Under the pieces are notes generated by a model. The model was not told the DNA's origin. It saw nothing but the letters and a program-made list of their open reading frames with translations, and did not search any database. Positions 11,831 to 48,514 of a DNA stretch of 64,000 bases are shown here, piece after piece (position 1 is the first letter of the stretch; the number at the start of each line of letters is the position of its first letter). The DNA is from Octopus sinensis (Eukaryota): NCBI RefSeq assembly GCF_006345805.1, contig NC_043009.1, positions 22,320,001-22,384,000 on the forward strand, in the 5' to 3' direction. Both the position numbers and the translations under genes were made by a program.

Positions 11831-11834
11831 AAAA

Positions 11835-23649: not shown

Positions 23650-23912
23650 TACATATTATCGACTAGTGGACTAGAGATGTTCTGTATATCTATTTGGAAA
23701 ATGTGAGCAAGACAAGAGAATAAAGGAGGCTCTTTCTGGTCACTAGAACTGCTAGAAATAGCAACCAAATCTTTCACTAATTGTACCCTTCGGTCTTAAA
23801 AGGGGAAAGACAAACTGAATAATGTGGGCATTGGATGCATGCTGCTGGAAAAGAAGTCAGGAAGTTAAACAACACCTAAGCAATAAACAATTAGTGTTCT
23901 TTTGTTTCCTAC

Positions 23913-25132: not shown

Positions 25133-26121
25133 CTGGAAAGAATAAAAGAAAAAAAAAAATGGGAGTGAAAGAAAGAAACAGACAAAGAAAGCTTTTACTA
25201 AACTGGAGTCAAAATAACAACTTTTCTCAACATAAGTATTAGATGAAAATAGTTATCTGCACATCATACTCAATGCAGAGAGATTTTAATCCAATACACT
25301 ATAAATCTAATATAGTTTCTGTTGCACATAAGGGATTGTTATTCAGACATGTGGTTAATTACATCACCAGTGACTTTTTAATCACTGTTTTTCTGTATCA
25401 GCAGTGATGGATTTGATCAGCTTGGGGCTGAACGCATAACCATGTAGTTGGAACACATAACCACGTGGTTGGGAAACAAACTTCTTAACTACATGCCCAA
25501 TCACATCATTGAACTCTCAAAGCAACAAGATAATGTACAATAAATTCAAAACAACTGTGAATAAATAAGCAATGCATTTGACAGAATAATCTGAATGCTC
25601 AATGGTTAAATCAGATATAAAAACAGAGTGACATATACACTAGTAACTATATTTGCCAATAGATGAACAGTAAATAGTGACAGATACACATTTAGAATTT
25701 AGTTGATCATTTAGTTTATGACATCTGCATTGAACATTCTGGAGGGTTTCCATTTAAAGATCAGAACAAACTTGGGATCTTTTCCCTTTGAATGGCAGAT
25801 CGAGAAATTAATTTTTTGTAACTAAACACTTTCAAAGTTTGGTCGCTGGTAGAATGTGTCATATAAAACATCTTTGACTTTTAGTGTTGTTGAGAAAAGT
25901 TTGTATTTTCAAAATTATTTCGTGTTAAAGTTGTCGTATTTTTGTAATTTTAACCAATCAGTGACCTGTATTCAGCTGAATAAAATTACTGCTGTTGTTT
26001 GTCAACAACAACTTCCGGCTAAAGAGTTAAACAGGATTATTCTGTGCTGTGCTTGAGGCTAGCTCAAGAACAGAAAGTGTTGTGAGAAAGATGGATAGAG
26101 AGAGAGAAACTGTTTGCTCAC

Positions 26122-26284
26122 CTTGAGGAAGGCACAGCTGAGAAATGATTTGCAGCAATTGGTACTGACTAGCATCATGGAGGTTAACCATTGCTTGCAG
26201 CAAATGTTTAATCGCTGCTGTTGTCTCACCTTGCAGAAGAGACAGCATGCACAAAGTCAAATCCATGCAGTTCTGCATCAAAAG
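26122..26284 (-). CDS. GEMIN5: GEMIN5 exon (LLMQNCMDLTL...QLCLPQG)
   Basis: Acceptor ttcttgcag, donor AG|gtgag, 163 nt, phase 0 to 1, consistent with both neighbours. Confidence 0.85.
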
Positions 26285-26348
26285 CTGCAAGAAGAAACAT
26301 AAAGAATAAGCAATGAAGCGACAACACTATACAACTATGGTTACAAAT

Positions 26349-27420
26349 AATTTTGGCACAGGGCCAGCAATTGTGGAAGAGGAGGGTAAGTCGATAATAT
26401 CGGCCCCAGTACCCAACCGGTACTTGTTTTATTAACCCCCAAACGATGAAAAGCTAAGTCAGCCTTGGCGGAACTTGAACTCAGAACATAAAGATGAAAT
26501 ATCACCAAGCATTTTGCCTGGTGTGCTAACGATTCTGCAATCTCACCACCTTAAATATTATTAATAATAATAATCTTTTCCACAATTACATCAAACCCAG
26601 TGCATAACTGGTACCTAATTTTTCATCTTGAAAGGATGAAAGGCAAAGTTGACCTTGGTAGAATTTGAACCCAGAACATATCTCAGAATATGCTAATGAT
26701 TCTGCCAGCTTGCCGCCTATAATAATCATCATCATCATCGTGAGATGAATAATAATAATAATAATCCTTTCTACTATAGGCACAAGGCCTGAAATTGAAG
26801 GGAGGGGGATAGTTTATTATATCGACTCGACCCCAGTACTTGACTGGTACTCAATTTATCAACCCTAAAAGGATGAAAGGCAAAGTCAACTGTGGAATAA
26901 TAATAATAATAATAATCCTTTCTTCTATTGACATAAGGCCTGAAATTTGGGTGAGGGGGAGGCCAGTTAATTACATCAACCCCAGGGTGAACTCGTCAAT
27001 TACCTTCACCCTAGTGTTCAACTGATATTCATTTCATCGCCCCCGAAAGGACGAAAGGCAAAGTTGACCTGGGTGGAATTTGAGCTCAGAATACAAAGAT
27101 GGATAAAATGTTGCTAAGCATTTTGATATGTAGGGGGGGGGGAGCTAACAGTTCTGCCAGATTGCCATCTTACATAATAATAATAATAATAAATTTTTTT
27201 TTTTTAATCCTTTCTATTACAGGCACAAGGCCTGGATTTTATGTGGAAGGGAACAGTTGATCACATCAACCTTAGTACTCAGCCGGTACTTAACTTATTG
27301 ACCCCGAAAAGGATGAAAGGCAAAGTCGACCTCGGCGGAATCTGAACCCAGAATGTAAAGATGGATGAAATGCCACAAGGCATTTTGTCTGGCGTCCTAA
27401 CGATCCAGCCAGCTCGCTGC
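26349..27420 (-). mobile_element. Head-to-tail array of ~5 SINE family B copies separated by (AAT)n
   Basis: Repeated GACCCCGAAAGGATGAAAGGCAAAGTCGACCTCGGCGGAATTTGAACTCAGAA...CTGCCAGCTCGCC; on the minus strand this gives a tRNA-like head (TGGCAGAATCG ... GAGTTCAAATTC). Confidence 0.8.
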
Positions 27421-27929
27421 ATTACACCATGATGATGATCATAATAATGAAAATAATAAAAATTAAAATAACAATAACAACAACAATCATGATGATGATG
27501 ATAATACTAATAATAATACAACCATTTTCAAGAGATTGTTAAGATCTCCAGTGAGCCATATGTCTAGTTTGATAAGACTGTCTGTCTACTTCTCGCCATG
27601 TTATCACCCAAGCCACAACAAATTTTGCCTAGTTCACCACTATAGCTACAATTAATGTTATCATTCATCGGCCATATATATATATATTTGCGGGGAGAAA
27701 TAAGAATAGGCATCAGATGACTGACTGGTATTCTTATCAATGCTTATCAATGTAATAAAAGACAAAAAATGGCAATCAGATTCCTATAATTATTAAGAGG
27801 AAATTTCCTCCTCTGTGGCTGTTATTGATTACAAACTGTTGCTTTGTGAAGTTTATTAACTTCAAGCAATTATGTCTTAATTAAGATACACTCAGTTGAC
27901 CTAACCTAATACACATTAATTCTTAATTA

Positions 27930-28018
<89 letters not shown>

Positions 28019-29706
28019 TCAATATTTTTTTTTATTCTTCTACTTGTTTTGGTCATTAGACAGTGGCCATGCAGGAGCACTGCCTTGAAAAGTCTTAGTC
28101 AAACAAATCATCCCCAGAATTATTTTTTTTAAAGCCTAGTACTTATTCTATTGGTCTCTTTTGCCAAACCACTAAGTTACAGGGACACTGGTTGTCAAGT
28201 GGTGATGGGGGAACAACACAAAGACAAACACAGAGATATACATACACATACACACACACATTTCTTTATTGCCCACAGGGGGCTAAACATAGAGCGGAGA
28301 AACAAGGACAGACAAAGGGATTAAGTTGATTACATTGACCCCAGTTCATAACTGGTACTTATTTAATTGACCCTGAAAGGATGAAAGGCAAAGTCGACCT
28401 CAGTGGAGTTTGAAATCAGAACGTAATGGCAGACGAAATATCACTGGGCATTTCATCCAGTGTGCTAATGTTTCTGCCAGCTTGCCGCCCTAACACACAC
28501 ACATATATAGATACTATGGGCTTCTTTCAGTTTCCATCAACCAAATCCACTCACAAGGACCGAACCCAAAACCATGTGGTTGGGAAGCAAGCTTCTTATC
28601 ACACAGTCAATATATATACACACACATACACATATCAATATTGATAGCTTTCATTGTTTCTTTTATTTGTTTCAGTCAGTGGACTGTGGCCATACTGGGG
28701 CACCACCTTGAAGGGTTTTAGTCAAACAAACCGACCCCAGGACCTGTTTCTTTTTCTTTTCTAAGTCTGGTACTTATTCCATTGGTCCCTTTTGCTGAGC
28801 CACTAAGTTATGGGGATGTAAGTAAACCAACAATGGTTGCCAAGCAATGCGTATGTAGGATAAACACAAATACAAAAACACACATATACACAAATGCCAA
28901 ATTTCCACACAATTTCTTGTCAACTGTGTTTGCTCACAAGGCATTGGTTGGTCCAGAGCTACAATAAAAAAAAAATCAAAACACTTGTCCAAGGCACCAT
29001 GCAATGGGACTGAACCCTGTATCACTTGGTTGCAAAGTGAATTTCTTAGACACACAGCCATATACATACATGACCTATACTCACTCCACAAAAGCCTCCT
29101 CCCCTTCAATCATCACTCATCTACTTCTTCACACACTTCAAATCATGTACCAAAATTTTGTACAAGTCTTCCCCACAAGTAACGCACCATCCTTCTAGAA
29201 CACAACTGGACCACACCCTAAAAACCTACTCTGTCGTCTCGGTAGCCTCAATCAAACTGAATCTAAACTTTGTTAGGGTGAAGACAGATAAGCGAGGATA
29301 GACAAGTCTCTGGACCATTTCTGACTGAGTCTCCCACCTGGACAAAACATATTATCCTGATGTTCAGCCACCATCTCTAGCAATTCATTTGTTATAGTAT
29401 CTTCTTAACCTTTCTTTAAATATTTTGGAAGTCCTGAACCACTGGCCTTCTTTCTCCAAGCCATAACCCATCACCACTACTATCATCATTGTCATTTAAT
29501 ATTCGTGCCCCATGCTAGTATGGGCTGGATATGGTTTCTAAGACTGGATGCCCTTCCTAGCAGCAACCACTTTACTGTAGTGGGCGCATTGTTGTGGCAC
29601 AAGCACTAGTGAGGTTACCATGTAGCCTTTAAAACTAAGATCCTCTTTGGGTGAGTGGGTCTGCAGTAGAGAAAGAGGTGGTTTTATGCTGGGGGATAAA
29701 AGGTTT

Positions 29707-30417
29707 AAGTGAGAGTGAAAGGGCCAGGAGAGACCAGGTTTCTTGCCGTAGAGGACTGTACACAGCTACTCATGTTATAGAAGAGAAGGTGGGAGTGACT
29801 AGTGTAGAACTGGAAAGAGATAAAATATAGTGGTGATGAAGTGTCAGGGTAGGGCAACTGGATACCAGGTGAATGGGGACAGGGAGTGAAGGTGAGTAAA
29901 GCTTGTATGGGAAAGTGAGGGGTGGTTGAATATAATGCAGAACGAATGTTGAGGGAAGAGTAGGTGACAACTGTAGAAACTGGGTGAACTTGAGTTGGTA
30001 ACCAATGCTACAAGAGTTCGCAGTGGGGTAGGGGAGAGGAAATGACTAATGATCACCGATGATGATGGTGATCATTAGTCATTTCCTCTCCCCTACCCCA
30101 CTGCGAACTCTTGTAGCATTGGTTACCAACTCAAGTTCACCCAGTTTCTACAGTTGTCACCTACTCTTCCCTCAACATTCGTTCTGCATTATATTCAACC
30201 ACCCCTCACTTTCCCATACAAGCTTTACTCACCTTCACTCCCTGTCCCCATTCACCTGGTATCCAGTTGCCCTACCCTGACACTTCATCACCACTATATT
30301 TTATCTCTTTCCAGTTCTACACTAGCCACTCCCACCTTCTCTTCTATAACATGAGTAGCTGTGTACAGTCCTCTACGGCAAGAAACCTGGTCTCTCCTGG
30401 CCCTTTCACTCTCACTT
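29707..30417. repeat. Long palindrome: 351-bp arms, 9-nt loop GATGATGAT, one mismatch
   Basis: 29707-30057 is the reverse complement of 30067-30417; mirrored ORF translations appear in the supplied track. Confidence 0.95.
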
Positions 30418-30701
30418 GAAGGGTTTTAGTCATTAGGCCGTTTTCCATGTTGACATGGGTTAAGTGGTTTGACAGACTCCAATTGTGTTTTGGCAAGGTT
30501 TCTGTGGCTAGATGCCCATCCAAATACCAATTACTGGGTGTTTGTATGTGGCACCAGCTCGGGTGCTTTCTACATGGCATTGCCCAAAATTAAGAAGATA
30601 TTACTAAATTGTTGAAGGTTCTAAAAAAAAAATAAATAAATAAAATAATAGTAATTAATTGCAGTTCTACTGAGAAATAAGAGTAGAAAATATCGTTTTA
30701 C

Positions 30702-30904
30702 CTGATCAATATTGACAAAACTTTGTCTGCCAGATATAAGAGTGTTGAAAATCTTGTACATATCTTCCACACTGCTGCTTTCAAGATCGACGTCCAGACA
30801 TTGGTGCCAAGAACGCAGTACATGATTGAAGAATGTGTGTTTATTGATGAGGTATGGCTTCCAAGGGCACAGGGGATCAATATCATTGCTATCCAGGATG
30901 AAAT
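30702..30904 (-). CDS. GEMIN5: GEMIN5 exon (DFILDSND...FVNIDQ)
   Basis: Acceptor gcatttcag, donor CAG|gtaaa, 203 nt, phase 1 to 0. Confidence 0.85.
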
Positions 30905-31009
30905 CTGAAATGCAAAATAAAAATAAAAGATATTTTAAAAATAAAAAATACAACTCTACCCTCAAATGCACAAGTTATAAAAAAAAAATATTAATTAGTT
31001 TATTCCATA

Positions 31010-31383
31010 GGCGCAGGAGTGGCTGTGTGGTAAGTAGCTTGCTTACCAACCAAATAGGTCTAGGTTCAGTCCCACTGCGTGGCACCTTGGGCAAGTGGCT
31101 TCTACTATAGCCTCGAGCTGACCAAAGCCTTGTGAGTAGATTTGGTAGACGGAAACTGAAAGAAGCTCGTCGTATATATATGTGTGTGTGTGTCTGTGTT
31201 TATCCCTCCAACATCGCTTAACCGATGCTGGCGTGTTTATGTCCCCGTAACTTAGTGGTTCGGCAAAAGAGACCAATAGAATAATTACTAGGCTTAGAAA
31301 GAATAAGTCCTGGGGTTGATTTGCTCGACTAAAGGCGGTGCTCCAGCATGGCCACAGTCAAATGACTGAAACAAGTAAAAGAG
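31010..31383 (+). mobile_element. SINE family A, full-length copy
   Basis: Near-identical to 22214-22619. Confidence 0.85.
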
Positions 31384-33584
31384 AGAGAGTTTATTCCATA
31401 CATTAAAACATCCATTTTCTCAAATTAGTATGGGCTGGAGAAGAATGCATTTGTGGCTGAATCTTACAGATGGGTGTTCTTCCTGTCACCAACTATTCAC
31501 TGTTTTCCAGATAAGAGGTTTCTTAATCAAAAGTGCAAAGTGATTGATAATAATGTCAACATGTAGCAAAACATATCACTGTTTCGCTCAAGTGAAGCCA
31601 ATACATGTTGACTTTCACAAATACATGAAATGGGCTTCATGCAGTTTCCTCCCACAAAATTCACTTGTAAGGTATTGGTTGGCCTGGGGCTGTAGTTAGA
31701 GACACCTGCCCAAGATGCAGCGCATCTTGGGCAAGTGAACCTGAAACCCATGGCTGCAAAATGAACTTCTAACCACACAGCCATACCTGCACCTCTATGT
31801 TAGTGGAACATAAAATTAAATCTTTCTTATAGTCTCAAGAGAAGCAGTGAACCATTTTTTAATCCCTAAATCAAAGCAATTCACAGAACCACTTATTTCT
31901 GGTATCTTTACTGTTATGAAAATGAGAAGTAAATTTTCCCCTGGAAAGATCACAAGTGCAACAATCGTGTATTATTCCTAGCCGTGGGACAAATCTTGGC
32001 CATAAAACTCACCCTGCTGTCTTGGAAAAAGAATATGAAAGATAGATTGAATAATAAAGCCTTAGAAAGACTGTGTCTAAAAAGACAAGAGAATAATGAC
32101 GAAAATACCTTGGTTCACTGTCCTGGGGTTAAACAACAACATCATTTAATGTCAGTTGGCATAGTCTGGATGGTTCAACAGGATCTGACTAGCCAGAGGG
32201 CTGTGTTGCCACCAGTGTCTGCCTGGCAAGGTTTCTATGTCTGGATGTCTTTCCTAACCCCAGCAACCTTACAGAGTGTACGGAGTGCCTTTTTTGTGAC
32301 CAGTGAGGTCACTGTGTAACATGCAAGACAAAATCCCTTCACAGAGTGGGGAAGGGGTGCGATATGGAGGGCAGCGGCTTAGCTGGATACTGTCAAACTA
32401 ACCAACCCATGCCAACAAGGAAATGGATGTTAAATAATGATGGTGGCAAGGATGGTGTTGGTGATGCTGCTACTGATGATGGTGATGATAATATCCAATG
32501 ATTTACAGGCCATTTTAAATGACTGCCACGTGTAAGACATAACTAATCACATCATGAGCCCATTTCTCAAACACTTAAAACTCTGAACCCTTTAAATTAC
32601 AAAGCTGTTGACAGCAGCATTCTTAATGCTTCTTAATTGCTCTGGATAATTAATAGAAACATTGTAATAATGATAACTATGCAGTTTTCATTTCACAATT
32701 CTTTATTCCTATAGCTTAATCTATCTTATTCTTCACACGTTTTAGTCATTAGACAGTGCCCAGCCTTGAAGGGTAGGGTTTTAGGCAAAGGAATTGACCC
32801 CAGTATTTATTTTTATAAAGCCTGGTACTTATTCTGTCGGTTGCTGGCATGGGTACATTTTGATGCACCCCAGTGCATTATATGTAGATGCATTCACATG
32901 TGTGTGTGTGTATTTTGTTGTGTTTGGGGAGAGTCATTCTCTTTTAGTGTCTTATTATTTAACGGACAGAGTCAATGACTACTGAAAAGGTGGCAAGAAG
33001 CAATGAAAATTTTAGGAAAAATAAATAAGTAAATGAGTGGAAACTTTACCAGTGTGTGTGTTAAATAATAAGGCACTAAAAGAGAATGACTCTCCATGAC
33101 TCTCCCCAGACAAAACAAAATATGCTTAAACACACAAACTCACAAAATGAAAAATATATATGTGTGTGTGTGTACACACACACACACGTGCTGGTTGCCA
33201 AGCTGTGGGGGGATGGACAGACAGACAGAAAGATACATATACATGATGGACTTCTTTTAGGTTTTGTCTATTAAGTTCACTCCCAAAGCATTGGTGGGCC
33301 CAAGGCTATAGTAAAAGACATTAGCTCCAGATACCATGCAGTAGGAACGAACCCAGAACCATGTGGTCAGGACGTAAGCTTCTTTTCACACAGTGACACC
33401 TGTGCCTATCATTTATTATGTTCCAGAATTTATTGAATTCTAATCCATGGTTCTATGCATTACATACACAAGCAGGCAAGGCTTGCACTGAGCCGTCTGA
33501 TTTGTTCACAAAAACATATTGGATATTTCTTTTTCCCATTTGAGCAACAACATTATGTGAACTTGTGTGTTGAAAGAAATCTTG

Positions 33585-33928
33585 GGAGGGTCAATGTGCC
33601 AATAAATAAATGCACACTAAGTTTATTTCACTTCTTTTATTATTATGATTATTAGTTAATTAATTAACCACTTAACCAATTCACCAGCTGATTGTTTGAG
33701 TAATCATTTGGTCAATCAGTTGATCAGCAAGGTCTGGGGTAGAGAGGGTCCATCATTGATGGAGTCACAAATGATTATGAAAAGACTCTGGCAAACCTTG
33801 TTCATTGAGGGATTGATCAAACAATTAATTAGTTAATAGGTTAATGGTTAAGCAAAACACTAATAATAATAATAATAAAAAAAGTGAAATAAAACCAGTG
33901 TGTGTGTTTATTGGCATAATGACCCTCC
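33585..33928. mobile_element. MITE with imperfect long TIRs (possibly Tc1/mariner-derived)
   Basis: GGAGGGTCAATGTGCCAATAAA... pairs with ...TTTATTGGCATAATGACCCTCC, and the symmetry continues inward for ~100 bp. Confidence 0.6.
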
Positions 33929-34381
33929 TTAACTAGGAAGCCTACACCGCCATTTTGCTCTTAGAAACACGAAGCATATTAAACATTATAAGCATCAATA
34001 TGACAGAGCAGAAAAAAAGGAGAATCAGATACATGATTCAAATTTCCCCAGAGATTTGAACTATGCATCTGTTGAACCTCGCCAATAGTCCTGAGTCCTT
34101 TCTTCTGTTTCAGGTTGATGTTTATAATGTTTCAATTTGGTACTTAGTATGTTATTGAAATTAAAATCTTAGCTGCTAATTTATAAGCTAAATATGGTCA
34201 AGAAACTTGCTCCCCAACCATGGGCAGCATCCTGAACAAATGTACTTGTCTCCAGTTTGGATGAGAATGCCATCTGATCCAAAATGGAAACGAGTACCAA
34301 CATTTCAAAGTGGTTTACTTGAACAATTGTGGAGGTCGCTACTGCATGAAAACATTGGTTGCCTTTCTTATTAATCCACAA

Positions 34382-34418
<37 letters not shown>

Positions 34419-34988
34419 AGTATGTATATGCATGCATATATAATGGACTTCCCTGTTGTGTAAGTGACAGATGAGGGTTTCAGCAACTTGGTATCTTTAC
34501 TTTGATTTTGAGCTGATCATTTGGTTAATATCTAAGAAATGTTTTATGGTGCTGACTGGCAATCTTGAGTAAGTTTCTGCTTTCAACTGTGTGGAAGCAA
34601 GCCCTGCCTCACTGCATACTACAAAGCCACAATGACCACAAACAAAATCATTTGTTCTTCTTGTTTCAGCTTTGGGTAACCATGGCTCTGTAGTTAAGTA
34701 AGCCCTCTGAGACTGGTGAGATCAATGTGGTAGTGGTTTGTCTTGAACCACGGCAAGTCATTAACTCCATCTTGAAATAGTAGGGGGCAATTAGTAAATT
34801 AATCAAGAAGTAATTAGCAAATTAAAAGCTGAAAACACGCCTACTGTCTTCATCATTTCCAACAAAGTATGAAGTAAGTAAATATCAAGACTGCCACAAG
34901 ACCATAAAAGAGAAAAACGAAGAAGAACAATAGAAAGGGATTACAATGGATTAGCGTTAATTATGAATATATGTAATATTTATTTTAC

Positions 34989-35139
34989 CTGGCAACAGTG
35001 TTTTTGATCCTGTTAATGATGTCATCCTTCTTTTGTGAAGTACAAAGACGGAGGAATCTTTGGCATACACAACACTGGGCATCAGTGTCAGGAGTTCGCT
35101 CATCATTAGCTCATGCATGCTGATAACCAGAGTAAACAC
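34989..35139 (-). CDS. GEMIN5: GEMIN5 exon (VFTLVISMHELMMSEL...KTLLP)
   Basis: Acceptor tatcttcag, donor CAG|gtaaa, 151 nt, phase 0 to 1; resembles the recalled vertebrate segment QRLVFCLLELLSRHL. Confidence 0.85.
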
Positions 35140-35353
35140 CTGAAGATAGAAACACAATATAAAATTTATGAATACATATATATCTATAAACGTTAAATTT
35201 AACTTAAGTTGAAAGTCAACAAAGTTTGCTTTAGAAGCATTAAGATGTATTAAAAGATACAGATAAGGAAATAATTTTATTTTCAAACGCAGGATAATCC
35301 TAATAATACAGCATGAACTGGATAAGCTATCCATAATTTGCAGATAAATCTCT

Positions 35354-35429
35354 TGGCGGTCAGCCATGAGACTCAAACTCACATCCCTGTGATTACACGT
35401 CAAGTGCTTTACCATTAAGCTAAACTGCC
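35354..35429 (-). pseudogene. Degenerate tRNA-like sequence (Thr-TGT-like anticodon loop)
   Basis: GGCAGTTTAGCTTAATGGTAAAGCACTTGACGTGTAATCACAGGGATGTGAGTTTGAGTCTCATGGCTGACCGCCA shows a D-arm, anticodon arm, T-arm and an imperfect acceptor stem; B-box TTC is mutated to TTT. Confidence 0.55.
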
Positions 35430-36386
35430 CCAGTGAGAAATTCTTCTGCAAATTTAGGATATATAAATCTAGCTTTATAAGATGCTATCATACATTAAAT
35501 TCAACTTAAGTTGAAAGTCGACAAAGTTTGCTTTAAAAGTGTTGAGAAGTATTGAAAGATACAGATAAGGAAATGATTTTATTCTCAAACACAGGATAAT
35601 GCTAATAATATAGCATGAACAGGATAAAGTAGCCATATTTTGGCCACTGACAGATTTTTCTGCAAAATATGGATAGTTTACCCTGTTCATGGTATATTAT
35701 TAGCATTATCCTGCATTTGAGGATAAAATTATTTCTTTATCTGTATTTTTCAATATCTATAAACATTTATATAAGATGGAATGAACAGGCTTTAACTGCA
35801 AAGTACAACAATTGTTTTCATGCAGTGGCAACAACTGCATAAATTAAATTATGTAAGTAAATATGATGCAGCAGCAGTTGTGTACTGGTATGTCATTAGT
35901 TGGTAGATACGTACATACATACACATTTATAGAAATCAGCTGCTCAGTGGATGTTAACATGAAGCTGAACATCAGTAAAAAAGAAAATACTTAAGCTGAA
36001 CTATTGAGGAATCTACAGTTACTTCATCAAAATTACAAGTTCAGGTTTATATCTGTAATTATCGGGGGACTGGGATATGTAACACACTGCTTAAATACCA
36101 ATCTTGAGAAATTAGGCTTCCCAAAACAAGAAAGGAGAAAGCTGATTTGAAGATTACTGTAAAAATCTGTAAAATTTTCCAGAAGTTTTATCATTTAAGA
36201 ATATATGAGCATGTCTAGACATGAAAGTATATGCATGAAAATACATACATAAAACAAAACATGCAATCTGTATACATACATACAAAAATACCCTGTTGAT
36301 GTTGTTGAAATTCCAATGAAGGAGCCTTAGATGTACGTTAGAAACTGGCTCCTTCTCAACTGTCAAGAAATCTCAAAATAAAATGA

Positions 36387-36529
<143 letters not shown>

Positions 36530-36857
36530 CATCAAATTAATATTCACAATAAATGTCCCTTGGATTGCTGTTGTTTTTGTATCTGAATTAGTCTTTCGTA
36601 ATTTATGACCATTTAATTCAAACATTTCCATCTTTTCCCTTTCCTCATCTATCGTTTCTATAGAAACGTTAAAGACTTCTACCAATCTTTGTGAGCATCA
36701 TCCTTATACATCCTGTGTTTGCTTTTTTTTTTACCTCATCTTTGTGTTTTTTTTTTACATTTTTGTACCATATAAGTGTGCGTGTGTGTATTTGTGCATG
36801 TGTATGCATTCTATCCTATTGATTTTTCGAGGGTATTAATTTATTTTTGCATCTACA

Positions 36858-37270
36858 GGCACAGACATGGCTGTGTGGTAAAAAGTTTGCCTCTCAACTA
36901 CATGGTTTTGGGTTCAATCCCTCTGCATGGCACCTTGTGTAACTGTCTTCTTCTATAACCTCAGCCAACCAAAGCCTTAAGAATGGAGTTAGTGAATGGA
37001 AACTGAAAGAAGCCTGTCATATACGTACACACACACACATACATATATGTATATATATATTTATATGTGTCTTTGTGTGTACTTGTCCCCCACTTTCACT
37101 TTACAACCGATGTTGGTGTGTTTATGTCCTTGTAACTTAGCAGTTCAGCAAAAGAGATCAATAGAATAAGCACTGGGCTTACAAAGAATAAGTCCTGGAG
37201 GTGATTTCTTTGACTAAAATCCTTTAAAGTGGTGCTCCAGCATGGCCACAGTCTAATTATTGAAACATAG
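36858..37270 (+). mobile_element. SINE family A, diverged full-length copy
   Basis: Same head, linker and tail organisation as 22214-22619. Confidence 0.8.
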
Positions 37271-37387
37271 TGGGTTCATCTCCTTTCAGTGTTTTTTCTC
37301 TCTAAGGGTCTTTATTTAACCCAATATTTATTTACTTGATAATACTTCTTGCTTTATCTTCAAATTACTGCTAAACAATTATAATAC

Positions 37388-37421
<34 letters not shown>

Positions 37422-37428
37422 TATAATT

Positions 37429-37477
<49 letters not shown>

Positions 37478-38871
37478 TAGATAGATAGATAGACAGACAG
37501 ATATAGATATATACATACAAACATACATGTGTAGATATTTGATATTCTTTATGTAAGATTTTTATGAGTTTAAAGTTCAAATAATAAATATGTCTGCTTA
37601 AAATGTTTCCTCCTATTAAATTGAACATCAACCCAATTATCTAATCTATTTAATCACTACACAATTATTTGATTTAGCTGGATACATTCCCTTTAAGAGA
37701 GAGAGAGAGGGAGAAAGGTAGGTGGAGGGAAGGAGAAAGTGAGAAAGAGAAAGAGAAGAATGAATGTAACAAAGACCCAATGGAAGATAGTTATTTTTGT
37801 TATTTAGAGCTGCTTACATGGTAATGAGCTCTTGGACTGGATACAAACTCAGAAGAATCATTTGAAATACTGCCACAAGATTTCAGCCACAAAGGATAGC
37901 TCATAGAGAGGAGGAGGAGGGGAGAGAGAGAGAGAGGGAGGAGGTTATAACATCACACAGACAGGGCACACTTCTGTATTTATATGCTCCCCAGTAACAG
38001 GTTCCACTCTGGCTTTGTGGTTCACTGCTTCGGGTTACTAAGGGCATCACAGCTGTGAAAACATTGTGTAATTAGCCGAAATTTTCAGAAGTACATCCGA
38101 CCTTTGCATAAAATCCACAAATTGATTCATACCAGACTTTTTGAGATCAGTGGAGAAATCTTTTTACGTGAATAACATTTTAGACACAAAAGTATACAAG
38201 AGGTGATATTGCGCCTTTTCCTGTAGACATTGGAGGCTGAAGCAGAATGTGTGAGTATAAGTGTGAATCCGATAATAATGGTTCATTGTGGTTATGGCCA
38301 GTTTGATTAACTAATTCTGTACTTCAGTACATCTAGTTCTTGGAAACATACTAGATCACTTAGAGAGACCAGCAAATCATCTTGACATACATGAATGTAT
38401 CTCAGCAGATTGTGATGAATATATATAATTTAATGTATGCAATATAAAGATATAAGCTACTAACAGTTTCATACACTGTGTCTCCAAACCAGAAGATAAC
38501 TTGGAGACACAAGGCATGTTATAAAAACCTGCCTTAAACTTGTGCCTCCAATGCATGAAACTATCGGTAGCTCATATTGCCTTAACAGAAGTGTAAACTA
38601 CATATATATATAAATATATATACATATATATATATTCTTTGCTTTTCTTTGTTTTAGCCATTTTGCTGTGGCCATACTGGAGGACTGCCTTTAGTCAAAC
38701 AAATCAATGTATTTATTTCATCGACCCCACCTAAAAGACTTATTTTTTGTAAGTCCAGTACTTATTCTATCGGTGTCTTTTGCTGAATTGCTAAGTTACA
38801 GAGACATAAACACACCAACATCAGTTGTCAAGAGATGGCGGAAGGACAAACCCAGACACACATATATATAT

Positions 38872-39706
38872 TTTAATTCTTATGCTTTCCTAAAAACTTG
38901 ATTTCGAAACGTACGTCCGTAGATAACTTAAAATTGTATGATAGATTGCCGTCAATTCATTCTCTCTTACCTGTTTGTGTCTGCCTTCCAATTGCTGTTT
39001 TTACTGAGATCTCCCTTTTTAGTAGAAGAAATAGCTATAACTCTTTGACTGCTATTTCTAAATTCGGTATGTGGTGAGGCAATTCGTTGCTAAACCCTTT
39101 ATTGCTTAGTATTACTTAAATTTTCCTCGAATGAGGCTTTTACATGCCGAAGACTACTTGGTGTAATTGATAATTATTCCAAATTAATTAATTTCACCCT
39201 TCATTATTACGGATAACCATATTTTATCTCAGTAGATGACCACAGCATCTTGTTTTGGCTACACGCGGGTGGGAAGGGGCTGGTGACACAATCTTTCCAT
39301 TCACACATTGAATTCGGTGATACTAGTTGTGGATTCTAGCTCGCTCTGATGCTGAGTTGAGTTGGTGCCTTCTAGTATCTCAAAATCCAATATATAATCA
39401 TTTATGATTATAGTATTCTACGCTGAAGAGAAAAGAAGTTTTTGGTAAGATAGAATTATTTAATATTTAATTCTTATGCTTTCCTAAAAACTTGATTTCG
39501 AAACGTACGTCCGTAGATAACTTAAAATTGTATGATAGATTGCCGTCAATTCATTCTCTCTTACCTGTTTGTGTCTGCCTTCCAATTGCTGTTTTTACTG
39601 AGATCTCCCTTTTTAGTAGAAGAAATAGCTATAACTCTTTGACTGCTATTTCTAAATTCGGTATGTGGTGAGGCAATTCGTTGCTAAACCCTTTATTGCT
39701 TAGTAT
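38872..39706 (+). mobile_element. Non-coding hammerhead-bearing retroelement (retrozyme / Penelope pLTR-like), ~1.4 tandem units of 594 nt
   Basis: Identical 241-bp direct repeats at 38872-39112 and 39466-39706, no long ORF, flanked by (TA)n; it splits a minus-strand SINE-A into tail (38635-38865) and head (39763-39926). Confidence 0.8.
39417..39517 (+). ncRNA. Type I hammerhead ribozyme
   Basis: Stem I TCTACG/CGTAGA; core CTGAAGA (39423-39429); 70-nt stem II (39430-39499); GAAA (39500-39503); palindromic minimal stem III ACGTACGT; GUC cleavage site after 39511. Confidence 0.85.
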
Positions 39707-40699
39707 ATATATATATATATATATATAAAAACATATACATATACACACACACACACATATGAAATGGGCTTCTTTCAGTTTCCATCTACCAAATCCACTC
39801 ACAAGGCTTTGCTTGGCCCATAGATATAGTAGAAGACACTTGCCCAAGGTGCCATGCAGTGGGACTGAACCTGGAACCATGCGGTTGGTAAGCAAGCTTC
39901 TTACCGCACAGCCACTCCTGTACCTGTATGTATATATATATATCTGGCACAGGCATGGAGGTGTGGTTAAGAAGTTTCCTTCCAAGCAAATACATATGTG
40001 TCTGCCTGGATATTGTGTATACACACACACACACACACACGCACTTCTACAGAAACATAAAACAAGCTAACAAATCATATTCACACATAGACACACATAC
40101 ACATACAAAGAGGCAATGCATTCACAAATGAACATGTATTCACTTGCATACCAACACAATATGGCAGCAATATACATAATATACATACATGTATATTGTA
40201 CATACACACACACATCGAACATATACATATACACAAAGTAGCAACCCATGCACATATAAGCACACGCAGAAACACACACATACTCAAACATGCGCACATA
40301 TAAACATGCACATTCCCAAACATGTACACGCATACACACGCACAGAGATATATAACAAAGTAACAACTCATACAAATACACGCACAGTCACACATATATG
40401 TTTGTGAGTGTATATATGTATATATATGCTTCTGGTGAGGAACCTAGAATAAAAAAAATGAAAACAATAGAATTTGATAAAATAAAAGAGAAATTCCAAA
40501 TGGGAAATGTTAACATTGCAAGATTAACTACTCACACACATGCACAAACATGCGCATGCATGCACACACACACATACACACTACATACACGTACACACAC
40601 ACAGACAAGAGAACATGGAAAATTCTTCACATGTAAGCTAACAGCTATACTTTATTCCCTCTTCAAACCCCAGTTGTTGTTGAGATATTTGTAGTTACA

Positions 40700-40960
40700 A
40701 TGGTGATTGTGATGATGATGACGGTGATGATGGTGATGATGACAGAGGCAACATTGTTGTGATGATGATGATGATGATGATGTGAGTGGCGACAGGTTCA
40801 TGGTGACGATGCTAATGATAATGGTGTTGATGGTGCACCCCCACCCCGTTATACTGCTGTTGATGATGATGATGACAATGATGTTGCTGATGCTGATGGT
40901 GGTGGAAGTGGTGATGATGATGATGATGATGATGACAATGATGATAGCATTGCTATAAAT
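40700..40960. repeat. Degenerate (ATG)n / (GTG)n trinucleotide microsatellite
   Basis: Directly visible. Confidence 0.9.
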
Positions 40961-41294
40961 GATGATAGCATTGTTATAAATGATTGTGGTGGCTGACAGT
41001 AGTATTACGCCAGCAATGATGATGATAAATCTGTGATGATGGTGGTGGCAGTGGTGGAGGTGGGCAAGTGTTATAGGCGTATAATGTGAAGCATTTCAAA
41101 AGTGCCACCACTACCACCACAGCCACCGCCGCCGCCACCTTTGCCAAACTGCACACCCATCCAGTCTGGCACTGAAGCTAGCAACACAAGCATCAATTGG
41201 CAATGGTACCATCACAACCTGACATCACTTTTATCAAGAGAATAACTAACATAATAATAATATATGATAATGATAATAATAATGATACTTTGAA

Positions 41295-41672
41295 ATTTTG
41301 ACACAGGGCCAGCAATTTTGAGGGGAGGTAGCAGTTGATTACATTGACCCCAGTACTTGACTGGTATTTATTTCATCGACCCCCAAAAGATGAAAGGCAA
41401 AGTCGACCTTGGTGGAATTTGAAATCACATTGTAAAGCCAGAAGAAATGCTTCTAACCATTTTGTCCAGCATGCTAACCATTCTGCCAGCTAGGCACACG
41501 GCCTGAAATTTTGGGGGTGGGGACTAGTCGATTACATCGACCCCACTACTCAACCCTGAAAGGATAAAAGGCAAAGTCAACTTCGGTGGAATTTGAACTT
41601 GGAATGTAGCGGCAGATGAAATACTGCTCAGCATTTCACCAGGCATGCTAACTATTCTGCCAGCTCGCCACC

Positions 41673-41728
<56 letters not shown>

Positions 41729-41965
41729 TTATTTATTTATTTATTTATTGCCCACAAGGGGCTAAACATAGAGGGGACAAGCAAGGACAAAGGGAATAAG
41801 TTGATTACATTGATACCAGTGTGTAACTGGTACTTATTTAACTGACTCCAAAAGGATGAAAGGTAAAGTCGACCTTGGCAGAATTTGAACTCAGAACATA
41901 ACGGCAGACGAAATACCACTAAGCATTTCACCCGGTGTGTTAATGATTCTGTCAGCTCATTGCCC
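41295..41965 (-). mobile_element. Array of 3 SINE family B copies with (AAT)n spacer
   Basis: Same core sequence as 26349-27420. Confidence 0.8.
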
Positions 41966-44021
41966 TAACAATAATAATAATGATGATGATGATGATGATT
42001 TCATTTATTTGCCACCAGGGCAAACGATAAGGGGGACAATACAAAACAGACATATAGTGTGTGTGTGTGTGGTTACATATAATGGAATTAAATAAATAAA
42101 TAAATGAAAAAGTATACATGGTATACAACGAAAAGGAAGGGAAATAAACATAGTATACAAAGGTTAACAAAAACAAAGTTGGGGGATGATAGCAATGTTG
42201 TCCTGATATAGGCTGACCTCAAGGGATAATGAAGAAATCCCACTGTCCAAGATCTTGAACACCAAGTGCAAGTGCTCTCTCCAATTCCCTTTCTACGACT
42301 CACAAGTCTACTCTTAGAGAGCTCCAATCCACTCTTGCCATTTAATAATAATTGTCCTGACGCAATACTGGGCAGTGGCTCTCGTGGCTTCTGATCTTAA
42401 CTGATAGGAAGTGTTATTATCATGGACATGTTTTGTCTTGGTGTAAAGGATGGGCTACAGCAAATATTCTGTTCAATACCACAGATTTGCTTATCAGTTG
42501 CTTGACCTCAAACAGTTGAGCATGTCCCTTAATGGCTGACAATATGTGCATCTCTGATCATGAGCAGGGGGAGTGAGGGAGCATCATAGCCATGTTTTCG
42601 GAGGGATTTTTTGAAACTTGAATGATTCACCTCTGGAAACATGGGTATTTTGTTAACCATCCTTAAACAACCCTTATTCAAGGACCTTTTGAGGGGGAAG
42701 GGTTACCCAATCTGACAAAAATTCCAACTGGGCCTCATCTACAAGGCCATGCAATGTTTATCTTGATACAAGGTCACCATGTTGACTGTTACTTTATTTT
42801 TTTTAACCCCAAGAAGATGAATGACAGAGTTGATTATGGCAGGATTTGAACTCACAACATAAAGGATTAGAACAAATACTGCAAAGTACAGACAAGGCTG
42901 TGTGGGTAAGAAGTTTGCTTACCAACCATGTAGTTTCAGGTCCAGTCCTGCTGCATGGTACTTTGGGTAAGTGTTTTCTATAGTCCCAAGCCTGATAAGT
43001 GTATGCAGGTGTGTATCTCCTTGTCTTGAAATCATATGTTAGGTGCAAGTGCCACTGTCACACAGGTAGTGTTGTTTGTTTCCAGTCTCCTGTGAAAACA
43101 TATTCAGCTGAAGGGAAACATTATATCCCTTGGAAATATGCGAGGGTTGGTGACAGGAAGGGCACCTGGCTATTGAAAATCTGCTTCAATGAACTCCACC
43201 TGATCCATACAAGGATGGAAAAGAGAATATTAAATCAATGACGATGATGATGATCTTGAGTTAACAGAGCCTTGCTAAGGAAAATAATGCATAAAGTACC
43301 TGAAAAAATGGCCTAAATATGAATCAGCCACCACAGTCATTTATAACAACGATATTACCACGACCATCATCATCATCATCATTATCAATATTGTTCCAAT
43401 GCTACTACCACAACATCCATCACTCATTCATGGAAAGAAGAGAGGTGTGGAGGACAAGCCCTAGACATGCTGGGGATTATAGAATGATGGACAGAATGAG
43501 CTCTGTCTATGAATGTCATGATGCTGAGTCCATATTACTCGGTAGGGAACACAGGGCCAGTTTCACAGTTTCTCTAGCGTACATATTCCTTCCTGGATGG
43601 GACACCAGTCCATTGCAGGATTACTCACTTTTACTAACTGAGTGGACTGGAATAACATGAAATGAAGGGTTTTGTTCAGAACACAATGTATTTCCTGGTA
43701 CAGAAATTGAAACCACCATCTTACAATCATAAATCCAACACCTGAACCACTAAGCTATGTGCCTTTACAATGTTATAATAGTAAAGAGCCCCTTTGGTCA
43801 GGAATGACCATGGGATGCATCTAGAAAGTTCCATTCAGAGGTATAAGTCAAGGTAAGGTTGTTTATGGAAGACCAGTAGTTGCCCATGCATACCAGCCTC
43901 CCCTATCCACACCACTGATGTTATCCAAGGGAAAGGCAAAGGTCAATACAGTTTGGCACGAGTGACATTGCAACTCATTTCTACAGCTGAGTGAACTGGA
44001 GCAATGTGAAATAAAGCATCT

Positions 44022-44249
44022 AATTTCTTTATTGCCCTCAAGGGGCTAAACATAGAGGAGACAAAGAAGGACAGACAAAGAGATTAAGTTGATTACATCG
44101 CCCCCAGTGCGTAACTGGTACTTAATTTATCGACCCCGAAAGGATGAAAAGCAAAGTCAACCTCGGCGGAATTTGAACTCAGAATGTTACGGCAGATGAA
44201 ATACCGCTAAGCATTTCGCCCAGCGTGCTAACGATTCTGCCAGCTCGCC
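44022..44249 (-). mobile_element. SINE family B copy with a 9-bp TSD, nested in another repeat
   Basis: AAAGCATCT occurs at 44013-44021 and 44250-44258; the host repeat continues on both sides. Confidence 0.85.
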
Positions 44250-45887
44250 AAAGCATCTTGCTCAAGAACACAACACACAGCCTGGTCTAGGAACTGAACT
44301 CACAACTTCAAGATTGTGAGCCTGATGCTCTAACCACTGAGCCATGCACTTTCACAATGTCACAATAGGGTAATCTAAGAGGAAACAACTGAACCAAGAG
44401 ATGACAATCAGATGGAACCCACAGACAGTTGTTTTGTGTGAGACACCAGGATGGAAGCATCATGTGGTGCGTTCATCAGAGTGGAGATGTTGCAGGTTTA
44501 TACCGAGATCCACAATGTTATATTGTTCTGTCCAGCTGGCATTTGACTTAAGAAAGATAACAGAGCAGTGATTCATGAGGCAAAAGAAGGAGGCAGATAA
44601 TGCTTCATGATACATATGACGACAAAGGTATTATATAAGAAAGACCAAAGCTGAAAGTAAAGAATGAAAAAAGCCCCAGAGTGAATAGCAGAGAAGAACA
44701 GTTGCTATGTGGTTTGAATGGTAACAGCTGCACCCATCTTGGTGTGGTGGATGTAAAGTTTGCTCGCTCGTTCATTGACACCAGATAGAGATTGTCTTGT
44801 CCCCGACAAGCAAGACTAAAATCTGAGTGAGTGCCACGTTCTAGACTAGATTCAATAAGGGGGAAGACAGAGGAACACAAAAGCAAAAATTTATGAAACA
44901 TATTGTATGTTATGTGTCAGTAGCAGAAAAGAGAACCATTACCATTATCACTTGCAGTTAAGTAGCTGCATGGCCAATATATGTGTGTGTGTGCACATGT
45001 ATGTATATATACTTATGTATATATGTATGTATGCATGTGTGTGTGTGCATGTATATGTGCACACATACATACATTTTTCAACAAGTGAAAAAAAACCATT
45101 AACAATTGTTGCAAGAGAAAATACAAAAACAATAAAAAATAAGTCTTTGATACAACAATAAAGAAACAATGAAAAAAAAAACTAACACAATCTGTCCCAA
45201 CATATCACACACACACACATTGTTGTAAGACTAACACAATAACAATATGAAATAACAGTGTGGCAATTACAACAAACATTTGGCTCCTTGGTGGAGCAAC
45301 AACAATAATAATAATAGGAAGAAAAAGGAGAAATGAAGGAAGGAAAGTAAGAAGACAATAAGAATGAGAGAGGGAGAAAGAAAGGGTAAAAGAAAGAGAG
45401 AGAAAGAAACGAACTGATGTTATAAGAATATAAGAGAAATGTCTAAAAGAAACAAGTAGTTAAGAGAGTTGTTGCAAGATTCTATAAATGGAATTTGTGG
45501 AATAAACTGGCAACTTTCTAACAGACATGTTACCCTCTCTTTCTCTTTGGCAGATGAAATAATAACCAACTGTATTCAATGGAAGCCAGATTAACTTGGA
45601 TACAAACAAAACCTTCATCTATCAAAGAGCCAACAGCAAAGCTTAGACTAAACCACATACTATAGGATGAACCATGTTGTTGCTTGACTTGCTAGAAATA
45701 GTAACCAAATGAGCACTGGCATAAGAAGTTTGCCATTGCAATCTCAAGAATTTTGGTGGGGGGTATACATCAAACTCAATGTGTGGCATCTTGAGCAAGT
45801 TGTATTTTATTATTGGTCTTGGGCCAACATGGTTTTTGAGTGGAATTTTGTTAGGAACTGTGTAGAAGCCCTTGTTTTATATATTAA

Positions 45888-46295
45888 CTAGCAGCTAAGC
45901 CCGGTTTCACCTGGTCTGTTTGGATAATGTGGCTGTGTTCATTTTTGGTTAGGCATAATCTATAAGAGTGTTTCTCAACCTTATCATTTTGGGTCCCCTG
46001 TTTCAATTGGAGCCTCCAGCTGTATGAAAATTTCCTGACCCCACCCCATCAGAGAACAGCTTCTAAGCAACTAGTTGTTTTAATGGCGGAAGAAAGGGGG
46101 ATTCCATTAGAAAAAGATTTCATCGATTTTCTCGGTAAGTATGGGGGCTAGGGAAAAACTACAAACCGCATTCCAATCTATGCACCCATCTCAACATGTG
46201 GGCCTTTTTTCATGTGAATCCACACAGCCATTTGGCTGTGAACCTCAAGACAAGAAAGAATACAACGATCACCTATGTCCAATTTATATTACAGA
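45888..46295 (-). mobile_element. Complete non-autonomous Helitron
   Basis: Minus strand reads A|TCTGTAATATAAAT ... hairpin (ACCAGGTGAAACCGGGC) ... CTAG|T, i.e. TC start, CTAG end and an AT target site. Confidence 0.7.
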
Positions 46296-46522
46296 TAACA
46301 TCATTTTAACCCCCATTTTCTCATGATAGCCCAAGGTGACTACATGGCTGTGGAGCAAAGTTTTTAATATCACACAACCACTGCATTCACCTATATATCA
46401 TCATCATAGATGCAGGTGTGACTGAGTGGTAAAAAGTTTGCTAACCAACTACAAGGTTCCGGGTTTCCACTGACAGGGCTTTCACTAGCCAGGGGCTACA
46501 GTAGAAGTTTATATATATATAT

Positions 46523-46736
46523 ATATAATATTAATTAGAGACAAAACCACTATTATGCAAATCAAACAAAGAAAGACTTAATCCAATACATAAAAAATTT
46601 TATATAAATTAAATATAATTAAGATATGTGGATATCTTAATTATATTTAATTTATATAAAATTTTTTATGTATTGGATTAAGTCTTTCTTTGTTTGATTT
46701 GCATAATAGTGGTTTTGTCTCTAATTAATATTATAT
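46523..46736. repeat. Perfect palindrome: 105-bp arms, 4-nt loop GTGG
   Basis: 46523-46627 is the exact reverse complement of 46632-46736; it lies between (TA)n tracts. Confidence 0.95.
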
Positions 46737-46817
46737 TATATTTTACTATAAAATTGGATTCAATCCTAAATCTGATTTTTCCCTGTAAATTTGGATTTAT
46801 TCCCTAATATTTATTAT

Positions 46818-46860
<43 letters not shown>

Positions 46861-47474
46861 TGTTCCAACTATATTCAACTGTTACATGAAAGCGAATAGG
46901 GGTCAGATGGGGAGGAAGATGGAGATGATGACAGGTTTTTCTACAAGAGGTAAAAGAACAAAGCTTATATGTCATATATTGAGAAGACAAAATGTTAATA
47001 ATAACTCTAATTTGACACAAAGCCAGTCATTTTCAAGAGCAGAAGGTTAGACAATAATATCAACACTATTATTTCACTGGCATTTTAGTTTACTGCCCCC
47101 CCCCACTCCACCTCTTCGGAGGGACAAAAGGCAAAATTAATGACAGTGAGATTTGAACTCAGGGCTAATGACTCAGAGCAAATACCACAAGGCATTCCAC
47201 TAGCTGCTTTACCAATTCTATCAGCCTTAACCCTTTTGATACCAATCCACCTGAAACTGCCTCTGGTTCGATGACACAAATTTATTTTTTTAAAGTGATC
47301 TAAATTATAATCATCCATTCTTCCATCAAAATTTTACGCTAATTTGTTCCAGACACAAACTTAATAATGACAAAGTTATTTTACTAAATTATTCATTATT
47401 TAAAAATTAATTGAAACAAAAGCAATATCTTTCAACAGAAATATGGTAATGATGATGATAATAATAATAATAAC

Positions 47475-48107
47475 AACCCTTTCAACTAAAGGCACAAGGC
47501 CTGAAATTTTGGGGGAAGAGACTAGTTGATTACATCAACCCCAGTGTTTCACTGGTACATAATTTATTGACTCCGAAAGGATGAAAGGCAAAGCTGATCT
47601 CAGCGAAATTGAACTCAGAACATAGCGATGGGTGAAATATCGCTAAGCATTTCATCCAGTGTGCTAACGATTCTGCCAGCTCGTCACTTTAATAATGATA
47701 ATAATAATCTTTTCTGCTATAGGCACAAAGCCTGACATTTTGGGAGAGGGGGCCAGTTGATTAGATTGACCCCAGTATGCAACTGGTACTTAATTTATCA
47801 ACCCCAAAATGATGAAAGGCAAAGTCAACCTCAGTGGAATTTGAACTCAGAACATAGCAATGGGTGAGATACAGCTAAGCATTTCGTCCAGCAAGCTTAC
47901 GATTCTGCCAGCTCACCGCCTTAATAATAATGGTTTCAAATTTTTCCACAAGGGCAGCCACTTTGGAGAAAGGGATGTGTTCAAGTAGCGCTTAATTTAT
48001 CGGCCTTGAAAAGATGAAAGAGGAATTTGAACTCAGAACATAGCGATGGGAGAAATACCACTAAGAATTTTGTCCAGCATGCTAATGATTCTGCCAGTTT
48101 GCCGCCT
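47475..48107 (-). mobile_element. Array of 3 SINE family B copies
   Basis: Same core sequence, with (AAT)n spacers. Confidence 0.8.
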
Positions 48108-48188
48108 TAACAACAACAACAACAACAATTATTATACACCCAATAATTATCTTCTAAGGGAGTGGTATCGACAATGAAAGGAACCTAC

Positions 48189-48399
48189 CTTCAAGTTGCT
48201 GTGTTCTTGTGTGAAATTGTAAGCTTCTTGATACTGCATTTTCTGGAGGTATTGATGGATAACACGCTGAGCCAGCAAGAGTCCGTTCTGTTTTTCCATG
48301 GCCAAGAGACTGATGTGAGCAGCTGTACGCATACATACATGATCTGTACGTTTGGTAAGGCATCGACTTGCATCTTGCACCTGCTTTATTGCAAGGTAG
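48189..48399 (-). CDS. GEMIN5: GEMIN5 exon, TPR-like dimerisation domain
   Basis: (C)YLAIKQVQDASRCLTKRTDHVCMRTAAHISLL...QEAYNFTQEHSNLK aligns by eye with human GEMIN5 [30 protein letters not shown]...AQEALQLHESLQ (recalled). 211 nt, phase 2 to 0. Confidence 0.9.
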
Positions 48400-48514
48400 C
48401 TGTTTCGAAAACAAAACAAAAAAAAATTCTTTATTAATTACACAAAAGCCAACAAAAAGGTTGAGGACAGTACAAAATGACAGAGTGTAGAGTTACATGA
48501 AAGAAATACATATA

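Follow-up and report, generated by a model that had tools for sequence, protein, structure and literature searches.

A young hammerhead-bearing insertion in Octopus sinensis as a probable member of a non-autonomous, Penelope-type element family

In the 64,000 nucleotides of Octopus sinensis DNA analyzed here, referred to as the window, an 835-bp non-coding insertion is most probably (about 0.8) a young copy of an abundant and long-lived non-autonomous retroelement family, with a structured unit of about 594 nt and a dimer-type hammerhead, that is mobilized in trans by an endonuclease-bearing Penelope-type element (PLE). The best reading of its mode of action is that the family works like a non-LTR retrozyme. 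The insertion and its surroundings comprise the following features:

38872..39706, forward strand: whole insertion, 835 bp, delimited by repeat geometry and comparison of insertion sites
38872..39112, forward strand: first 241-bp repeat, the 5'-truncated upstream pseudo-LTR (pLTR), which starts in the loop of hammerhead helix II
39466..39706, forward strand: second 241-bp repeat, the downstream pLTR, with its 3' end (39706) as the presumed start of reverse transcription
38862..38871, unstranded: remnant of the (TA)n target on the left, located within a host interspersed repeat
39707..39727, unstranded: right (TA)n target remnant
38600..39935, unstranded: host interspersed repeat, ends approximate, split by the insertion, with at least five uninterrupted paralogues in the window
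26027..48437, reverse strand: GEMIN5 exons on both sides of the element, from domain matches

The insertion corresponds to 1.41 copies of a non-coding unit of 594 bp (35% GC). Its two 241-bp direct repeats are exact (0 differences, period 594), and the predicted cleavage sites lie after 38917 and after 39511. The 5' end of the insertion falls into the A+U-rich loop of helix II, 46 nt upstream of the first cut site, and the 3' end is located 195 nt beyond the second. The longest stop-to-stop frame has 66 amino acids and the longest ATG-started frame on the forward strand 36; a Pfam search of the 6 frames of the element gave nothing meaningful, the 66-residue frame had no relatives among longer proteins, a comparison of little weight, or among 1.84 billion representatives, and neither an RT or GIY-YIG ORF nor a remnant of either was found in the element. 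As the repeats are identical and as three alleles of this copy (39297, 39351, and 39387) are nearly or wholly absent from four sequencing runs, the copy is young. These three alleles are all situated outside the repeats, a clustering that is not significant (P = 0.076) and from which nothing is concluded about the template.

The flanks of the insertion are the two halves of a common host interspersed repeat. In five paralogues of this repeat within the window the spacer is a microsatellite of 22–51 bp, as compared with 899 bp at this locus, and the 835 bp therefore represent a clean insertion into (TA)n, of which only about 10 nt remain on the left and about 20 nt on the right, with no readable target-site duplication. 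A TPR_GEMI5 match within 48147–48437 (E = 1.2e-6) and a GEMI5_RBS match within 26027–26326 (E = 4.5e-10), both on the minus strand, show that GEMIN5 exons flank the element; the hammerhead strand is therefore intronic and runs antisense to the gene. The initial annotation had described identical 241-bp repeats with cut sites 594 nt apart, the lack of an ORF, a position within (TA)n, and an antisense orientation sparing the GEMIN5 pre-mRNA, and all of these points hold: the repeats are exact, TA remnants are present on both sides and a microsatellite occupies the spacer in the paralogues, and the hammerhead is absent from the host pre-mRNA. Downstream of the GEMI5_RBS exon there is also a 447-residue open frame (23865–25208, minus strand) without a Pfam match, which is probably a long late GEMIN5 exon.

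A type I hammerhead is predicted at the second repeat, and folding adds two further features:

39417..39517, forward strand: complete type I hammerhead motif, predicted from our own descriptor and folding (helix I, 39417–39422/39512–39517; core, 39423–39429; helix II, 39430–39499; GAAA, 39500–39503; palindrome, 39503–39510; cut after 39511)
38909..38923, forward strand: first palindrome and cleavage site (after 38917), predicted from pair probabilities of 0.88–0.97 to be cut by the downstream core
38918..39511, forward strand: cut-to-cut 594-nt unit, strongly folded according to folding predictions, with its ends joined by helix I

The motif has a helix I of 6 Watson-Crick pairs, a CUGAAGA core, a long and interrupted helix II spanning 70 nt, GAAA, a palindromic helix III, and UC at the cut, the site being preceded by an 8-nt palindrome. 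The descriptor gave a single match over the two strands of the 64-kb window and none in 60 locally shuffled windows. Rfam did not recognize the hammerhead at its gathering score or at E values up to 10, and the assignment therefore relies on the descriptor and on folding. At the first cut site CUGANGA and the 5' arms are missing, in line with the earlier description of a complete type I hammerhead at the second site and a 5'-truncated one at the first, and the predicted motif also supports its assignment to the Penelope/retrozyme kind. A common variant of helix III keeps the palindromic duplex through G-U pairs (−8.8 versus −9.8 kcal/mol), and single-base losses on opposite arms of helix II (39439 and 38892) show similar depth in run X1, unphased. 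When metagenome and viral contigs were searched with a 22-nt pattern no match was obtained, and 31 matches to an 18-nt pattern were discarded as chance, as none of them had a matching hammerhead core or further homology.

Folding of the cut-to-cut unit gave a z score of −6.3, and the circular form one of −5.7 as compared with −2.8 for the minus strand. In the monomer, helix III forms with a pair probability of only 0.03–0.04, and co-folding of two copies gives a symmetric double hammerhead (−60.4 versus −48.0). The lowest-energy fold of the whole insert is half of such a double hammerhead, in which the two palindromes pair with each other and the downstream core region pairs with the six bases that follow the first site, the core itself being unpaired; this half-dimer fold has probabilities of 0.85–0.97 at 15, 25, and 37°C, in the nascent transcript, and with flanks included. 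Initially, the complete hammerhead had been assigned to the second site. Folding predicts instead that in a transcript of the insert a helix III of the dimer type leads to cleavage at 38917, the "truncated" first site, and that the second site (39511) is nearly inactive as a monomer. Since only one core survives in this copy, a sense transcript would be cut once, at 38917, and the window copy alone should not release a 594-nt monomer in cis. A dimer mode has been described for metazoan hammerheads (PMC4209133), and for Xenopus it is reported in a preprint (bioRxiv 10.64898/2026.07.22.740005) that 8 of 9 predicted dimers failed to cleave in vitro. Helix I is closed by the unit body with its ends meeting (pair probability 0.95), whereas with shuffled bodies closure amounted to at most 0.10 in 10 of 12 cases and to 0.69 in the other 2. 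This cross helix is predicted to depend on the unit body, and a fold that holds the monomer ends together is predicted to suit ligation.

Variation within the family was compared with the predicted structure using the 40 substitutions listed out of 91 variants, which are linked in subfamilies and so are not independent. Only 6 of the 40 break a confidently predicted pair, with 13.1 expected (P = 0.0014), and 5 of these 6 are carried by a divergent subfamily. Within the hammerhead span there are 2 of 40, with 6.8 expected (P = 0.024), and within core and helix I none, with 1.7 expected, a difference that is not significant (P = 0.18). No two-sided compensatory changes occur among the 40. This bias among variants suggests that the RNA of the entire unit is under selection.

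In 20 of the 24 listed runs, from 10 studies and under 4 organism labels, 50% or more of the unit's words are present. For 4 of these 20 runs (X1, X5, X9, and X13), of which X1 may be related to the source of the window, all contigs were used for alignment to 38846–39465, yielding, in descending order, 6244, 1888, 103, and 41 aligned contigs and coverage of 29–30 of 30 bins. The summed depth in the DNA-like runs X1 and X9 is about 1e4 to 1e6, a figure that is not a copy number, and the family is very abundant. In the same two runs the fraction of contigs that continue into dissimilar sequence is 0. A subfamily with about 88% likeness follows the unit colinearly over 39135–39441 and then re-enters the repeat, its helix II loop being shorter (X5, X13), and its joint is also present in X9. 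As this subfamily has the same layout, the ORF-free unit is not a one-off deletion; it has persisted for a time sufficient for divergence and occurs under two organism labels. With the 20 runs, the ORF-free subfamily, and the identical repeats, the initially proposed young, non-autonomous multi-copy family is supported, and the contrary case named at that time, in which the copies would merely be pLTRs of ORF-bearing elements, is not what the loose ends listed reveal. Just left of the 5' junction, at 38846–38866, a summed depth of 5,000–8,000 was noted in X1 and X9, which could stem from other copies that were likewise cut short in this loop and follow (TA)n, or from host-repeat paralogues.

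We consider it improbable that the insertion is a rare dead by-product, that is, a copy of an autonomous PLE that has undergone internal deletion or rearrangement, with truncated pLTR copies explaining the high depth. PLE hammerheads in genomes are reported to be mostly solitary truncated pLTRs (PMC4209133), and the median depth of the repeat in X9 is about five times that of the body (39224–39433; 578k versus 111k), as such an origin would predict. In X1, however, the body reaches about half the depth of the repeat (510k versus 1,097k), no well-supported junction to foreign sequence was found in the body (39215–39416) among the 24 of 215 loose ends listed, and the 88% subfamily repeats the same ORF-free layout under both labels with no coding remnant detected. 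A false duplication of the 241 bp during assembly, which the 100% identity of the repeats and the lack of any contig seen to span the locus might bring to mind, is given next to no weight: the wrap from 39465 to 38872 occurs in contigs of all four runs (5, 4, 1, and 1 contigs), contigs cross 39112/39113, although the shorter side comprises only 21–29 letters, a further copy terminates at 39112 in (TA)n, and the flanks are colinear with empty paralogues. Among the contigs listed none spans the whole unit, and contigs of this kind are unable to show tandem arrays.

On the hammerhead strand, run X5 displays an excess of A>G over G>A (25 versus 7, P = 0.002), and the share of A>G is 25 of 66 in X5 versus 14 of 75 in X1 and X9 together (P = 0.014), with no such excess in X13 (13 of 56, P = 0.66). 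As X5 and X13 are RNA by guess only, none of the runs with the family being recorded as RNA, and as X5 bears an organism label other than that of the DNA runs and has no matched DNA, these figures give only a hint of A-to-I editing of the family RNA. A literature search on editing of this type in retrozymes brought up a single review, which was unrelated. In the internal loop of helix II, at 39434, a G is found in a 426-nt contig of X13, the sole cover there, and almost never in the DNA-like runs; this might reflect editing inside the ribozyme, on the basis of a single contig from a run guessed to be RNA.

Copies of the family end at two sites, which are described by three features:

39094..39112, forward strand: 19-nt motif whose last base is 3'-end site 1, with a second copy at 39688–39706
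39196..39214, forward strand: 19-nt motif resembling the former (identical at 13 of 19 positions) and closing at 3'-end site 2 of other copies
39113..39214, forward strand: optional 3' extension ("tail") of about 102 nt, from loose ends in X5 and X13 and a depth step in X9

Like the window copy, another copy ends at 39112 and is followed by (TA)n and unique sequence (1 X5 contig), and copies ending at about 39214–39215 before (TA)n are found in 2 X5 contigs and 1 X13 contig, so that besides the window copy the two ends are documented by 1 and 3 contigs, respectively, among the 24 of 215 loose ends listed. The likeness of 19 nt between the two sites is the best of 538 positions and also ranks first at 20 nt, the ranks at other lengths being 3 (9 ties) at 15 nt, 2 at 25 nt, and 2 at 30 nt; the length of 19 nt was picked after the likeness had been seen.

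Together with the partial tandem forming pLTRs, the 5' truncation, and the (TA)n target, the two 3'-end sites are PLE-type marks. In general, PLEs are characterized by partial tandems, 5' truncation, a tail, and a bias for (TA)n without visible target-site duplication (PMC8557442, PMC3846280). For the PLE of the anole, the only one examined in vitro, it is reported that two internal start sites of reverse transcription yield an optional tail of 30–40 bp, that reverse transcription starts inside uncut linear RNA, that A+T-rich DNA is cut, and that the hammerhead is unnecessary for insertion (PMC11167929). A SINE-like or satellite-derived repeat, moved by a microsatellite-targeting LINE, with the repeat resulting from template switching or local duplication and the hammerhead as a passenger, appears very unlikely. 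The window is rich in LINE remnants and TA tracts are common insertion sites; however, the unit lacks a poly(A) signal, a B box, and any tail repeat of its own, the pair of fixed internal 3' ends and the partial tandem are typical of PLEs, and fold and hammerhead look constrained.

Mobilization by a PLE would proceed as follows. An RNA longer than one unit, presumably a tandem transcript or a ligated circle, would be the template. The PLE protein would nick the (TA)n tract, and reverse transcription would begin internally in the RNA, at one or the other of two fixed sites separated by about 102 nt; the 3'-end sites themselves are seen in other copies, and the initiation mechanism is proposed by analogy with the anole element. 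Copying would then go upstream through one hammerhead and around the unit and would continue for 46 nt beyond the next cut site, and a stop in the A+U-rich loop of helix II would give the 241-bp repeats, the geometry of which is observed and the cause conjectured. According to folding, the hammerhead would act as a double hammerhead between neighboring units and be nearly silent in the monomer or circle. We infer PLE mobilization, internal initiation, and 5' truncation in a hairpin loop from these marks; within the window, neither an autonomous PLE partner nor homology to the pLTR of an autonomous PLE was found. Reverse transcription around a circle as a source of inserts longer than one unit is an idea already contained in PMC4209133. 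A circle and an uncut tandem transcript both give this insert, and its form therefore does not separate them. The initial annotation had concluded from the more-than-unit insert that a young family was copied from a circular or tandem RNA of about 594 nt; the young family stands, and a circle is not singled out because partial tandems are the normal insertion form of PLEs (PMC8557442).

A narrower version of this explanation invokes the full retrozyme cycle, in which tandem transcripts self-cleave, ligation of the 594-nt monomers gives abundant circles, and the circle is what the reverse transcriptase copies. We regard it as a possibility with somewhat less than even chances. The cut-to-cut unit folds far better than shuffled versions and more so on the hammerhead strand than on the other, the unit body closes helix I as shuffled bodies mostly do not, folding predicts an inactive monomer, which is a precondition for a stable circle, the repeats are identical even though the family varies at many sites within them, and retrozymes of mussel, coral, and axolotl form such circles (PMC7229834). 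However, a homogeneous tandem source accounts equally well for identical repeats, the main substrate of the anole PLE is uncut RNA, with no RNA-seq reads ending at the cut (PMC11167929), and hammerheads of PLE type, with a long helix II and a palindromic helix III, are reported to be poor cleavers (PMC4209133). A bolder scheme is doubtful: the PLE reverse transcriptase would copy the circle directly, starting at one of two short signal copies spaced 102 nt from each other, the fold would aid ligation, the RNA would be A-to-I edited, with edits possibly fixed in new copies, and the whole would be an active high-copy retrozyme. If true, thousands of young insertions would make circle-templated target-primed reverse transcription and its start signal directly testable. 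This type of reverse transcription has been proposed since 2014, without proof in the cited parts of the PLE and retrozyme papers.

On returning to the preferred explanation, a PLE-mobilized unit, the element may be compared with known systems. With animal non-LTR retrozymes (PMC7229834; bioRxiv 10.64898/2026.07.22.740005) it shares a non-coding unit below 50% GC, one type I hammerhead per unit, a palindromic helix III suited to dimers, a strong unit fold, a high copy number, and proposed mobilization by PLEs, and dispersed monomers like the window copy are common among them. The unit of 594 nt exceeds the 150–450 bp given in PMC7229834 and falls within the 51–972 bp of the preprint. An interrupted hairpin of 70 nt makes up helix II, as compared with 4 bp in animal non-LTR retrozymes, and the fixed 3' ends, the tail, and the (TA)n target found here are undescribed in the cited portions of the animal retrozyme papers. 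With one complete core and 1.41 units, the window copy counts as a monomer and lacks the two complete hammerheads by which the preprint defines "active" elements. According to the preprint, retrozymes track the pLTRs of PLEs. We class it here as a non-autonomous hammerhead element of PLE type rather than as a proven retrozyme, its ribozyme being predicted from sequence and folding.

Endonuclease-bearing PLEs and pLTR hammerheads (PMC4209133, PMC8557442, PMC3846280, PMC11167929) are alike in the partial tandem forming pLTRs, the 5' truncation, the optional 3' tail from two starts of reverse transcription, the A+T-rich or (TA)n targets without readable target-site duplication, and a hammerhead that lies upstream of the 3' end and combines a long helix II with a small palindromic helix III. 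In contrast to them, the present element contains no RT or GIY-YIG ORF or remnant, and for lack of an ORF with both it was rejected as an autonomous PLE; its tail is about 102 nt long versus 30–40 nt, and its helix I has 6 pairs versus 2–5. Naiads PLEs target (TA)n and are reported to be without hammerheads. From a stated microsatellite bias, Neptune would be our guess for the partner clade. Active Penelope families have been reported in Octopus vulgaris (PMC13282606, PMC8967140). Non-autonomous Chlamys PLEs such as MRC1 (PMC8557442) are likewise ORF-free, with pLTRs and head-to-tail copies under PLE machinery; unlike the present element they are green algal and mostly lack hammerheads, and 3' homology to the autonomous partner has been demonstrated there. 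Plant LTR retrozymes (PMC4918200) resemble it in having a non-coding unit of 600–1000 nt between identical repeats with a cut site in each, whereas they possess type III hammerheads, true LTRs, PBS/PPT, and 4-bp target-site duplications in place of the type I hammerhead, truncated upstream repeat, and variable 3' ends found here. Identity with a plant-type LTR retrozyme was rejected because of the type I topology, the truncated first repeat, and the absence of a readable target-site duplication.

Both the element class and the circle model are already published, in PMC4209133, PMC7229834, and bioRxiv 10.64898/2026.07.22.740005. As the class is known, the find is unsurprising by itself, and its value is that of a clean test case and a good experimental system. 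A literature search found no description of such a family in cephalopods, and supplements or repeat libraries may already list it. One ORF-free element here unites retrozyme features, namely the unit-wide fold and the dimer-type hammerhead, with the insertion marks of PLEs, which lends support to the published, indirect claim that PLEs mobilize animal retrozymes. It also offers two sharp predictions, the site at which an insert of 1.4 units is cut and a candidate duplicated start signal for reverse transcription.

Several minor observations concern other parts of the window. A second partial tandem consists of 285-bp repeats (57410–57694 and 57885–58169) that are 98.6% alike with a period of 475, within an element at about 57000–58169 that borders on (TA)n and on the right-hand half of the host repeat described above and has short tandem repeats at its other end. 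It has no hammerhead by the descriptor and no Pfam or protein match, was rejected for these reasons as the autonomous partner, and is possibly a Penelope-type insertion of a different family. A near-perfect palindrome of 715 bp (99%) at 29704–30420, without a Pfam match in four frames, is of the kind left by PLEs at inverted 5' ends, and an A+T-rich palindrome of 251 bp (95%) at 46505–46755 directly follows a (TA)n tract. Ordinary transposon remnants are located at 44–385 (forward), 9237–13287, and 50242–53311 (forward) and comprise an IS1595-type transposase and two LINE copies with RT, one of them also with endonuclease. A tRNA-like Rfam match at 35358–35429 (reverse strand; 32.7 bits), the single one in the window, represents a pseudogene or the head of a SINE.
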